A stretch of 64,000 nt of DNA from Candidatus Fraserbacteria bacterium (GTDB taxonomy: Bacteria; Bipolaricaulota; Bipolaricaulia; RBG-16-55-9), in contig JBBIOR010000006.1 of NCBI GenBank assembly GCA_037443265.1, positions 12,896 to 76,895 of the forward strand, written 5' to 3'. Every line of letters begins with the position of its first letter. Position 1 is the first letter of the stretch. Positions 12,254 through 29,707 of the stretch are shown one piece after another. Both the position numbers and the translations under genes were made by a program. A model generated the notes under the pieces. That model did no database searches and was not told where the DNA came from. It was given only the letters and a program-made list of their open reading frames with translations.

Positions 12254-12957
12254 CGCCGCTGCTGCAAGAAGATCATGACGTAGTAGACCAGGTTCAGGAT
12301 CGCGACAGCGGCTGCGGCCACATACGTGAGCGCGGCCGCGTTCAGCACCTTTCCGACGGCGGCCAGCTCCGGGCCTGAGGTGACCACTCCCGTATCTTTA
12401 AGGAGGGCCATCGCCCGTCGGCTGGCGTTGAACTCCACCGGCAGCGTCACCAGCGTAAAGAGCACCGCCGCAGAGTACGCCAGAATCCCCAATAGAATCA
12501 GGATGCTGAATTTGGGGATGAGAAAGCCAGCTAGGATGAGGGGGAAGGCCAATTGGCTTCCGAATTGGGCTGCAGGCACGAGAGCCGAGCGGAGCACCAG
12601 AGGCTGGTAGCGCGCGGCATCCTGGAGCGCATGTCCGGCCTCATGGGCCGCCACGCCAATATCGGCCAGCGAGCGGCTATCAGGATGCGAGAGCCTGAGG
12701 GTCTTGTCCCGAGGGTCGTAGTGATCAGTGAGCATCCCCGGAACAGCCGCCACCCGAACGGCTCTCAGCTCGGGCTGTCTCAAGCTGAGAGCTCCATGTC
12801 CTAGAAGGCGCTCGGCCACCTGACGAGCCGTAAATCCAGACGAGCAGGTCACTTGCGCGTACCGCGCATAGGTGCTCCGAACCTTCCACTGCGCGTAGAA
12901 GGCCAAGAGCATCGCCGGTGCCAGAAGCAAGAACCACAATGGATCAAAGAAGAACAT
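12250..12957 (-). CDS. Membrane zinc metallopeptidase (YugP-like)
   Basis: LTDHYDP, AAHEAGHALQ, TLPVEFNASRRA, AAALTYVA; start MFFFDP. Confidence 0.9.
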   Translation of the reverse strand: MFFFDPLWFLLLAPAMLLAFYAQWKVRSTYARYAQVTCSSGFTARQVAERLLGHGALSLRQPELRAVRVAAVPGMLTDHYDPRDKTLRLSHPDSRSLADIGVAAHEAGHALQDAARYQPLVLRSALVPAAQFGSQLAFPLILAGFLIPKFSILILLGILAYSAAVLFTLVTLPVEFNASRRAMALLKDTGVVTSGPELAAVGKVLNAAALTYVAAAAVAILNLVYYVMIFLQQRR

Positions 12958-28994: not shown

Positions 28995-29123
28995 AGGGAA
29001 AAGCTGCCGGCCCCGCGCCGAATCCAGCCAGGAACGAGCTTCGCCCAGCTGTGTGTAATCCCCATCATAGTTGAGCACTTGTGGGGCCCTTTAAGATGAG
29101 CCTCAAGGAGGTTGGCCCCATTT

Positions 29124-29378
29124 ATGGAAATCGCACAAGCTCGACTGACGGGTACGGTGCAGGAGTGGAACCAAGTCTGCGATGGGATCCACACGCTCGA
29201 CTGTCTCCATCAGGTGGCCCAACTGCTGGCCGACGACCTGCTGCAGATCCTCAGGCGCAACAAAGATCTGAAGGCCCATCTGCTCGACGAAGGCACCCGC
29301 CTGACGCTCGCCCTCAGCCTCCATGTGGAAGAGGGCCAATCCGATGGCCTGGTGCGAGAGTGGCCTTCGACTTCTTGA
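29124..29378 (+). CDS. Small hypothetical protein (84 aa)
   Basis: SD AAGGAGG at 29105-29111; helical, Leu-rich; family not recognised. Confidence 0.6.
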   Translation: MEIAQARLTGTVQEWNQVCDGIHTLDCLHQVAQLLADDLLQILRRNKDLKAHLLDEGTRLTLALSLHVEEGQSDGLVREWPSTS

Positions 29379-29430
29379 AAGCAGAAGAGCTTGGCCAGCT
29401 GCGTGCTTTGTCCTTTCGGGGCTGCTGAGC

Positions 29431-29464
29431 AAAAAGCTGGGGTCAGGAGGTGAGGAACCCCAGC
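29431..29464 (-). terminator. Intrinsic terminator-like hairpin
   Basis: GCTGGGGT-loop-ACCCCAGC followed by TTTTT on the minus strand. Confidence 0.6.
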
Positions 29465-29629
29465 AAAACTCTGGCAACCTCGAAGGCCCCCTCTTTGGGC
29501 CAAGCTCTTCCACCAAAAGGAGGTTGGGTTTCGCTCTCATCCCCCTCTACGATGATGAGAGCCATTAAGAGAGATTGGGTTTGCGTCCCTCCACCCGCTT
29601 GGTTGAGCCTCCTCACCGCTCCTCTCACC
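29431..29629 (-). ncRNA. Putative structured small RNA, 6S RNA-like rod
   Basis: Promoter TTGACT-18-(TGC)TAATGT at 29665-29636; 5' and 3' ends pair; long G-U-rich apical stem; ends in hairpin plus U5. Confidence 0.5.
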
Positions 29630-29707
29630 GAGCTTACATTAGCATAGAAGAGGCAGGAAAGTCAATGCCTCCCCAGGGAGCAGGCTGGGGAAATTCGTCA
29701 CCTGGGG

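Follow-up and report, generated by a model that had tools for sequence, protein, structure and literature searches.

The unpaired regions of the Streptococcus csRNAs are described as holding anti-Shine-Dalgarno (anti-SD) and anti-AUG sequences (PMC3091779), and the alpha-r14/NfeR1 small RNAs (sRNAs) as displaying an anti-SD motif, CCUCCUCCC, in three hairpin loops (PMC10746234). The locus considered here lies in a 64,000-nucleotide (nt) stretch of DNA from a Candidatus Fraserbacteria bacterium (GenBank assembly GCA_037443265.1, contig JBBIOR010000006.1, forward-strand positions 12,896 to 76,895), termed the window, and all positions are counted from its first letter. The minus strand from about 29629 to 29380, behind a tRNA-Lys gene, is probably an independently transcribed, non-coding, structured sRNA, and we have little doubt that this RNA belongs to a real structured multi-copy RNA family. 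A first-pass annotation, made by a model from the letters of the window, had placed an RNA of about 200 nt here and proposed a divergent 6S RNA or a new two-state sRNA. To our knowledge, nothing is known of RNA regulators in the uncultured Candidatus Fraserbacteria/Acetothermia-related lineages; a limited literature search, which may have missed an earlier description, found no RNA of Fraserbacteria and no sRNA or 6S RNA of Bipolaricaulota/Acetothermia. The family is apparently undescribed and has no Rfam model.

The family is recognised by a shared core, (P3a)-CAGRG-UUUU-(GC hairpin P4)-UUUUU-(G/C)CYCAG-(P3a'). The first covariance model, R1, took in a hairpin specific to one lineage, and many of its hits were weak; it found divergent relatives across the order, the core was recognised by reading them, and R1 was superseded by a core model, R2, built from 33 sequences. 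The core signature stands at seven further places in the window's own genome (G000), where R2 returned eight copies at 50-71 bits, one match at 29.2 bits, and nothing else up to E=1. Paralogs vary in size from about 100 to about 250 nt, the minimal one of roughly 100 nt being at G000:C1:38650-38760, and those of one genome have little in common beyond ~40 conserved core positions; the copy on contig C16 corresponds to copies in genomes G004 and G008, with compensatory changes in an extra hairpin. The weak ninth match (G000:C10:48001-48052, minus strand), whose flanks can form a P1 helix nearly identical to that of the window locus (CGAAGAGCUUGGCCU/AGGCCAAGCUCCUCG), may be a decaying or divergent paralog. 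Three copies (L068, at G000:C9:8250-8350, minus strand; L055; L064) carry, in the stretch that separates the P3 3' strand from the P1 3' strand, a hairpin like a T-arm (GGGGUUCGAGUCCCC or GCGGUUCGAAUCCGU), giving a cloverleaf-like four-way junction; ARAGORN called no tRNA or transfer-messenger RNA (tmRNA) on these three.

With R2, 54/151 genomes of a class sample matched at E<=1e-3, as did every other genome of the order at that threshold (34/34, with one to nine matches each), and no genome of two sister families matched (0/44 and 0/47). In a phylum sample at E<=1e-5 there were matches in 34/151 genomes; the counts by family were 8/8 (f1), 15/16 (f5), 4/4 (f3), 1/1 (f2), 3/3 (f4), 1/1 (f6), 1/4 (f11), 0/43 (f9), 0/55 (f8) and 0/14 (f10). 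A pattern scan of metagenomes gave 83 loci, and a pattern scan of viral contigs gave none. By sequence search the family is confined to one Bipolaricaulota-type order and a few neighbouring lineages; the relatives in the carrier order are labelled Candidatus Fraserbacteria or Acetothermia, the carrier genomes are 0.9-4.1 Mb in size with up to nine copies each, and the family has more than 100 distinct representatives.

BLAST against 41 related genomes matched the region beyond the tRNA in two of them only, G006 (76% identity) and G001 (74%), and inspection for the motifs added a third ortholog, in G005. A tRNA-Lys gene adjoins the RNA in these three as well, a neighbour that is kept in three genera. 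When species-representative genomes were scanned with a pattern, the relatives obtained were two Candidatus Fraserbacteria metagenome-assembled genomes (MAGs) and one Candidatus Acetothermia MAG; a Pseudomonas locus (L034) from the pattern scan lacked the family signature and was treated as a chance match. The 3' half of the RNA is highly conserved in the four genomes, and the conservation runs past the five U residues (U5) that follow P4: GCUCAGCAGCCC stands directly after U5 in all four orthologous genomes, and ~25 nt beyond it lies GGCCAAGCUCUUC, the exact complement of GAAGAGCUUGGCC upstream of P4. P4 shows four compensatory pairs among the four orthologs.

Conservation and covariation in relatives, which the first-pass annotation had put forward as a check on its proposal, were both found. 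In the MAFFT alignment of 33 sequences, 8/11 predicted pairs have compensatory changes. By helix, such changes occur in 5/6 pairs of P3a; in the larger alignment described next, the middle pair of P3b alternates between G-C (64) and A-U (11), and all six modelled pairs of P4 covary. R2 was also applied to 100 loci (L035-L071 and L104-L166, with L167 onward left out), which gave 100 matches in 75 distinct rows; in this alignment 95.0% of the cells were paired, compared with 75.1% in shuffles (0/500 shuffles reached the observed value), and 13/15 pairs had changed on both sides, across 200 cells. Controls with slid partners gave 33-60% paired. The G.U pairs, in 81/1069 cells, would be A.C mismatches on the opposite strand, and the choice of the minus strand as the RNA strand, for which G-U pairs had been cited, is upheld by them. 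In P1, formed by 13-mers on either side of the core, wholly different sequences keep their pairing (GAAGAGCUUGGCC/GGCCAAGCUCUUC, GGCGACCCC/GGGGUCGCC, AAAGAGCCAUAUC/GAUAUGGCUCUUU, GUCCGCGGUGCCCUCUGC/GCGGAGGACACCGCGGAC, GAGAGGGCUUGG/CCAAGUCCCUCU). The residues U14-U17, the 3' U run, C9, G11 and G13, and the C, A and G of the 3' strand, are invariant in 33/33 sequences. The common scaffold, as modelled, is rod-like and consists of the long-range helix P1, P3 with a CA/A bulge, an internal loop of facing U runs (U4/U5), and the GC-rich hairpin P4.

In the window copy (minus strand throughout), P1 is a predicted 17-bp helix between GGUGGAAGAGCUUGGCC (29514-29498) and GGCCAAGCUCUUCUGCU (29396-29380). 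Within it, P3a pairs GGUUGC (29479-29474) with GCAGCC (29425-29420); P3b, set off by the CA bulge (29473-29472) and the bulged A (29426), pairs GAG(U) (29471-29468) with GCUC (29430-29427); and the 5' U run UUUU (29468-29465) and U5 (29435-29431) flank P4, a hairpin of GCUGGGGUU/GACCCCAGC with an 11-nt loop (29464-29436). Read together with U5, this is GCUGGGGU(U)/(G)ACCCCAGC then U5 (29464-29431), with the loop CCUCACCUCCU, in which anti-SD motif 2, CCUCC, occupies 29450-29446 and UCACCUCCU is identical to the 16S tail. The 5' domain is closed by P0, whose SD-like 5' strand GAGAGGAG (29626-29619) would pair with CUCCUUUU (29522-29515); an equivalent helix of an SD-like segment with CCUCC was predicted independently in each of four orthologs, and it shows no covariation because both of its sides are invariant. 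The partner strand of P0 falls within anti-SD motif 1 (B1), AACCUCCUUUU (29525-29515), of which ACCUCCUUU is identical to the 16S 3' tail. Also in this domain are two copies of the repeat AAACCCAA (29582-29575 and 29531-29524) and a predicted hairpin, GCUCUCAUC/GAUGAGAGC (29562-29533), that G006, G001 and G005 keep with altered stems and loops. The hairpin with U5 and its loop, the second anti-SD-like run and the duplicated repeat are thus all present as the first-pass annotation had described them.

The limits and fold given in that annotation fared less well. Folded alone, the interval 29431-29635 has a minimum free energy (MFE) with z -0.84 on the minus strand, 43/200 shuffles being as good, and z -1.28 on the plus strand, no better than chance; nor is 29431 the 3' boundary, as covarying partners lie beyond it, at 29430-29420 and 29396-29380. 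With the bounds 29372-29629 the MFE is -108.5 kcal/mol (z -2.37), and this fold contains P1 (17 bp), P3a, P3b and P4 together with the separate P0-closed 5' domain; the 3' domain alone gives z -3.06, with 0/200 shuffles as good. The proposed pairing of the 5' with the 3' end (AGGAGcgGUGAGGAG with UUCCUCACCUCCU) does appear in the MFE of the shorter interval; however, it competes with the covarying P4 and was not found by eye in the three orthologs. There is no large central bubble; the largest conserved internal loop is U4/U5, which is unlike the bubble of an open promoter. Conservation lends no support to a switch between a terminator and the 5'/3' rod. P4 plus U5 (29464-29431) does make up a GC-rich hairpin with a U run immediately behind it, which a terminator scan missed because of its loop limit of 8 nt. 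By the comparative evidence, what had been called a terminator is the internal hairpin P4 of the conserved core; to take hairpin plus U5 for the end of the gene is a tempting misreading, corrected here.

Upstream of the RNA, and outside it, lies the gene for tRNA-Lys(UUU) (29780-29706, minus strand), placed ahead of the RNA as had been stated, and between this gene and the sRNA promoter there is a terminator-like hairpin, CCCCAG..CUGGGG, at 29693-29668 (minus strand). The promoter elements named in the first-pass annotation are present on the minus strand: a -35 hexamer TTGACT (29665-29660), invariant across the four orthologous loci, and, after an 18-nt spacer, an extended -10 of TGC plus TAATGT (29644-29636; hexamer 29641-29636), which in G006 and G001 is TGC plus TAAATT at 17-nt spacing. 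A consensus promoter scan did not call this promoter, TAATGT having only 3/6 consensus matches; the putative promoter is supported by its conservation, both elements being near-invariant at this locus and in three other genomes. A purine-rich stretch follows the -10 in the 5' part of the RNA. The predicted transcript of ~250 nt (29629-29372, minus strand) has its 5' end set from the -10 and its 3' end from the P1 3' strand and the U-rich CUCUUCUGCUUUC; as the 3' strands of P3 and P1 lie downstream of 29431, the RNA would extend to ~29380. A convergent open reading frame (ORF) of 88 aa (29112-29378, plus strand) has its stop codon 5 nt from the P1 3' strand, and the 3' ends of the ORF and the RNA therefore probably overlap. 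This ORF has no Pfam match; nucleotide alignments read by eye indicate that its protein sequence is kept across the orthologous loci (..KDLKAHLL..LSLH..).

The anti-SD-like motifs proved to be a hallmark of the family. The 16S rRNA 3' end of this genome is GGAUCACCUCCUUUCU (tail CACCUCCUUUCU). CCUCC was counted in 96 copies over a span that reaches 130 nt ahead of the core and 90 nt past it, and occurs 244 times against 51 occurrences of GGAGG. This is 9.4 per kb on the RNA strand compared with a genome average of 2.06 per kb (4.6-fold), with GGAGG at 1.97 per kb. At least one CCUCC is found in 95/96 copies and at least two in 79/96, usually two to three per RNA; members carry one to five, in the P4 loop, 5' of P1, in extra hairpin loops or in the 3' tail. 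Upstream of the core the motif is most frequent at a distance of 60-80 nt, immediately ahead of P1, and the predicted P4 apical loop holds CCUCC in 54/100 copies and CCUC in 69/100; P4 loops without CCUCC are, for example, ACCCCC or ACCAGGCCC. The motif reaches past CCUCC to (C)ACCUCCUU, which is the 16S tail. In the window copy the P4 loop CCUCACCUCCU is complementary to the SD and is unpaired in the predicted fold.

The paralogs occupy differing neighbourhoods and have no conserved neighbouring protein gene. By mechanical ORF calls, a convergent ORF lies 23-170 nt from 6/8 copies in this genome, and some copies begin ~50-100 nt past an upstream co-directional ORF. Another paralog, outside the window, follows a riboswitch: an RF03167 aptamer (c-di-GMP-I-GGC; 76.4 bits, G000:C3:13678-13762, plus strand; locus L067, 179-263) precedes the C3 copy by 139 nt on the same strand. 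Comparison of coordinates placed RF03167 and a family RNA in same-strand tandem at at least 11 places in at least 10 genomes of four families, and three of these tandems were inspected directly; the G006 tandem has a tRNA-Glu gene next to the RNA on its downstream side, where an ORF might have stood. RF03167 is abundant in the order (33/35 genomes at E<=0.001, with six in this genome and up to 17 in G001) and matched in 0/14 control genomes. In one genus of family f5 (L042, L044, L047, L049, L057), the best-scoring paralog always follows a gene whose product, from the look of its C-terminus, seems to resemble inosine monophosphate (IMP) dehydrogenase; that paralog ends in a tail rich in C and U (CCCCUCCCUCCUAC), behind which stands a strong terminator hairpin of its own.

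Our preferred reading, which we hold an even call, is that the family acts by anti-SD base-pairing and so blocks translation initiation, the mechanism being drawn by analogy with the csRNAs (PMC3091779) and alpha-r14/NfeR1 (PMC10746234) as these are described. The exposed CCUCC loop would pair with the GGAGG Shine-Dalgarno region of mRNAs, and this pairing would block binding of 30S subunits to mRNAs with AAGGAGGUG sites. The acting loop of the window copy would be CCUCACCUCCU of P4, with motif 1 masked by the SD-like segment of P0, and the paralogs might be expressed under different signals, one group behind the c-di-GMP-I-GGC riboswitch. A fixed scaffold bearing copies of the anti-SD sequence suggests a general throttle on translation initiation in genomes where Hfq is mostly absent. 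If the RF03167 link holds, a second messenger would act straight on a regulatory RNA, and an orphan-like riboswitch variant would gain a testable output.

Several points weigh against this reading. CCUCC is absent from 46/100 of the P4 apical loops, and one of the two motifs of the window copy is paired, motif 1 being masked by P0. When this genome was searched with the 15-nt complement of the P4 loop, no extended match was found at a plausible start site; there were 21 near-matches, three of them before an ORF start (a crude test), and none was convincing. P4 plus U5 resembles an intrinsic terminator, which, if efficient, would prevent P3 and P1 from forming, and some transcripts may end at the U5 behind P4; UUUU occurs within 70 nt downstream of the core in only 20/98 copies. 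As to the alignments, the one of 100 matches was fitted to the model, so that structure is favoured in it, and the metagenome loci were picked by a pattern in which the U runs and their GCC/GG flanks are set in advance; only the set of 33 sequences gives independent evidence that the U4/U5 loop, the CA/A bulge and the G.A closing pair do not vary. Finally, a base-pairing model does not account for the invariant single-stranded U runs, the CA/A bulge or the G.A closing pair, which point to a protein or tertiary partner.

That last point leads to an alternative that we judge unlikely but deserving of weight, in which the RNA is a protein-binding scaffold or decoy: the U4/U5 loop, CA/A bulge and G.A pair would be the site of a dedicated protein, and the copies of the 16S tail would titrate a factor acting at the 16S 3' end (a nuclease, maturation factor or ribosomal protein) or would serve to load mRNAs onto the protein. 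Loop residues that are fixed in sequence are typically those in contact with a protein or with another part of the RNA fold, and such invariance is seen here in the U14-U17 and 3' U runs and the other residues constant in 33/33 sequences; the extension of the motif past CCUCC to (C)ACCUCCUU would suit such a role as well. No candidate partner was found, however: Hfq (PF17209) matched in 8/151 class genomes and 4/34 other genomes of the order and not in this genome, the LSM family (PF01423) had no match in this genome (88% complete), TROVE was likewise not found in it, and the varying context of the paralogs offers no conserved neighbouring protein gene. Rather improbable, in our estimate, is a new kind of ribonucleoprotein or RNA clamp in place of an ordinary base-pairing sRNA. 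Its invariant facing U runs, set between G-C pairs, and its 16S-tail copies, kept at fixed distances, would capture A-rich/GGAGG initiation regions or a 16S-3'-end factor, with the ~8 paralogs serving as a signal-gated global brake on initiation in these bacteria of small genome, one of them gated by a c-di-GMP-type riboswitch. We also think it improbable that the elements are cis-acting 3'-end or terminator modules that mark the ends of transcription units, or two-form RNAs in which a stop at U5 gives a short form with the P1 and P3 5' strands free and read-through gives the closed rod. The GC hairpin with U5 in every copy, the six of eight copies here that face a convergent ORF, the copies lying past a co-directional ORF, and the paralog placed after a riboswitch aptamer, where an expression platform is expected, would all fit such modules; but the P3 and P1 3' strands beyond U5 covary with their 5' strands, so that the read-through RNA is under selection, the promoter is conserved at this locus and -10-like elements stand before other copies (by eye), and the strand-specific enrichment of CCUCC would have no role in termination.

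The remaining explanations concern whether the locus is a known RNA, a repeat or a gene. At gathering thresholds Rfam found only tRNAs in the whole window, and Rfam 15 at E<=10, csRNA and RF00013 (6S) included, gave nothing but tRNA on the minus strand of the locus; at E<=1 the seven paralog loci gave only RF03167 and two chance-level long non-coding RNA (lncRNA) rows. Signal recognition particle (SRP) RNA and tmRNA were both found elsewhere in the genome, and the locus is neither; YrlA/Y RNA was set aside on 0 matches to TROVE (PF05731) at E<=1 in the genome (88% complete) and no ARAGORN tRNA-like call. The first proposal, a 6S RNA that has diverged and would bind the RNA polymerase holoenzyme, is very improbable. 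The window copy is like 6S RNA in its size (~200-250 nt), in a promoter of its own, here with an extended -10, and in helices interrupted by loops, and RF00013 (threshold 46.4 bits) identified no 6S anywhere in this genome or, at E<=1, in any of 121 class genomes (0/121), which leaves the class without an assigned 6S RNA, if it has one; as this model detects 6S in only 5/14 control genomes, its silence, at the locus also (E<=10), says little either way. 6S RNA, a template for pRNA that binds holoenzyme of the sigma-70 type, has one, sometimes two, genes per genome, whereas there are eight paralogs here of about 100 to about 250 nt; the large central bubble is absent, and no single stem closes the 5' and 3' ends, P0 closing the 5' domain and P1 the 3' domain. 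There is an equally slight chance that the copies are repetitive or mobile DNA without RNA function (miniature inverted-repeat transposable element (MITE)- or repetitive extragenic palindrome (REP)-like). They are multi-copy, carry nested inverted repeats and are mostly intergenic, between convergent ORFs, but copies within a genome diverge outside the core, positional orthologs occur across genera (for example, behind tRNA-Lys in three), the compensatory changes with G.U pairs fit one strand, CCUCC is enriched on one strand only, and viral contigs gave no matches. That the locus had no convincing ORF, as first noted, holds in part: a 61-aa ORF exists (29628..29443, minus strand) and is not conserved as a protein. 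In G000, G006 and G001 its reading frame stays open over 57-65 codons and includes a common ...TQPPFGGRAWP... stretch, yet the chance that it is a small protein gene seems to us close to negligible. It has no Pfam match; in the four orthologs the conserved blocks do not vary at any codon position; a 1-nt indel in G005 moves the block GCCAGAGUUUU to another frame, with only 44 codons open; inspection by eye showed no start codon with an SD at a usable spacing; and the other paralogs have the RNA core in common, not the ORF. What stands of the first proposal is a structured, non-coding RNA on the minus strand that has anti-SD-like motifs and its own promoter; the bounds and the 6S reading given with it are not supported.

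Set beside known systems, the arrangement UUUU-(GC hairpin)-A/C-UUUUU of the family is that of the intrinsic terminator and Hfq-binding module of sRNAs, which is made of a U-rich stretch, a GC hairpin and a U tail; it differs in that the sequence after U5 pairs back before U4 and covaries, and in that Hfq was not found in most carriers. The facing U runs, which have three G-C/R-Y pairs as a stem below them and a GC-rich hairpin above, also resemble the ENE-type (element for nuclear expression) U-rich internal loop, which clamps an A tract in a triple helix in viral and lncRNA elements and of which we know no bacterial example; the likeness is one of resemblance only. An ENE-like clamp acting in cis was rejected, there being no conserved A tract (A5 upstream in 10/98 copies and downstream in 8/98). 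Riboswitch-controlled small RNAs exist, for example the B12 riboswitch with EutX/Rli55, and the RF03167-linked paralogs are like these in having an aptamer and then a non-coding RNA with no ORF; the aptamer class here is c-di-GMP-I-GGC, and the likeness concerns other paralogs and not the window copy.

The closest likeness in kind is to the two sRNA groups named at the outset. The csRNAs, as described, also have several sibling copies, independent genes, an unpaired complement of the SD, and a proposed or shown block of initiation (PMC3091779); they differ in being two simple stem-loops of ~90-150 nt with an anti-AUG beside the anti-SD, in their CiaR promoters, and in belonging to Bacillota, whereas the window family has a long-range helix, a U4/U5 internal loop, a CA/A bulge, and its motif mostly in a hairpin loop. 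The alpha-r14/NfeR1 sRNAs of Rhizobiales are, by their description, multi-copy as well, with an ultraconserved anti-SD in loops and variable stems (PMC10746234); they come from a different phylum, and the window family differs from them in its invariant loop nucleotides, in its fixed P1/P3/U-loop/P4 architecture, and in a motif that copies the 16S tail (ACCUCCUU) rather than CCUCCUCCC. In kind, the family is one of sibling anti-SD sRNAs, yet its scaffold is new and unusually constrained.

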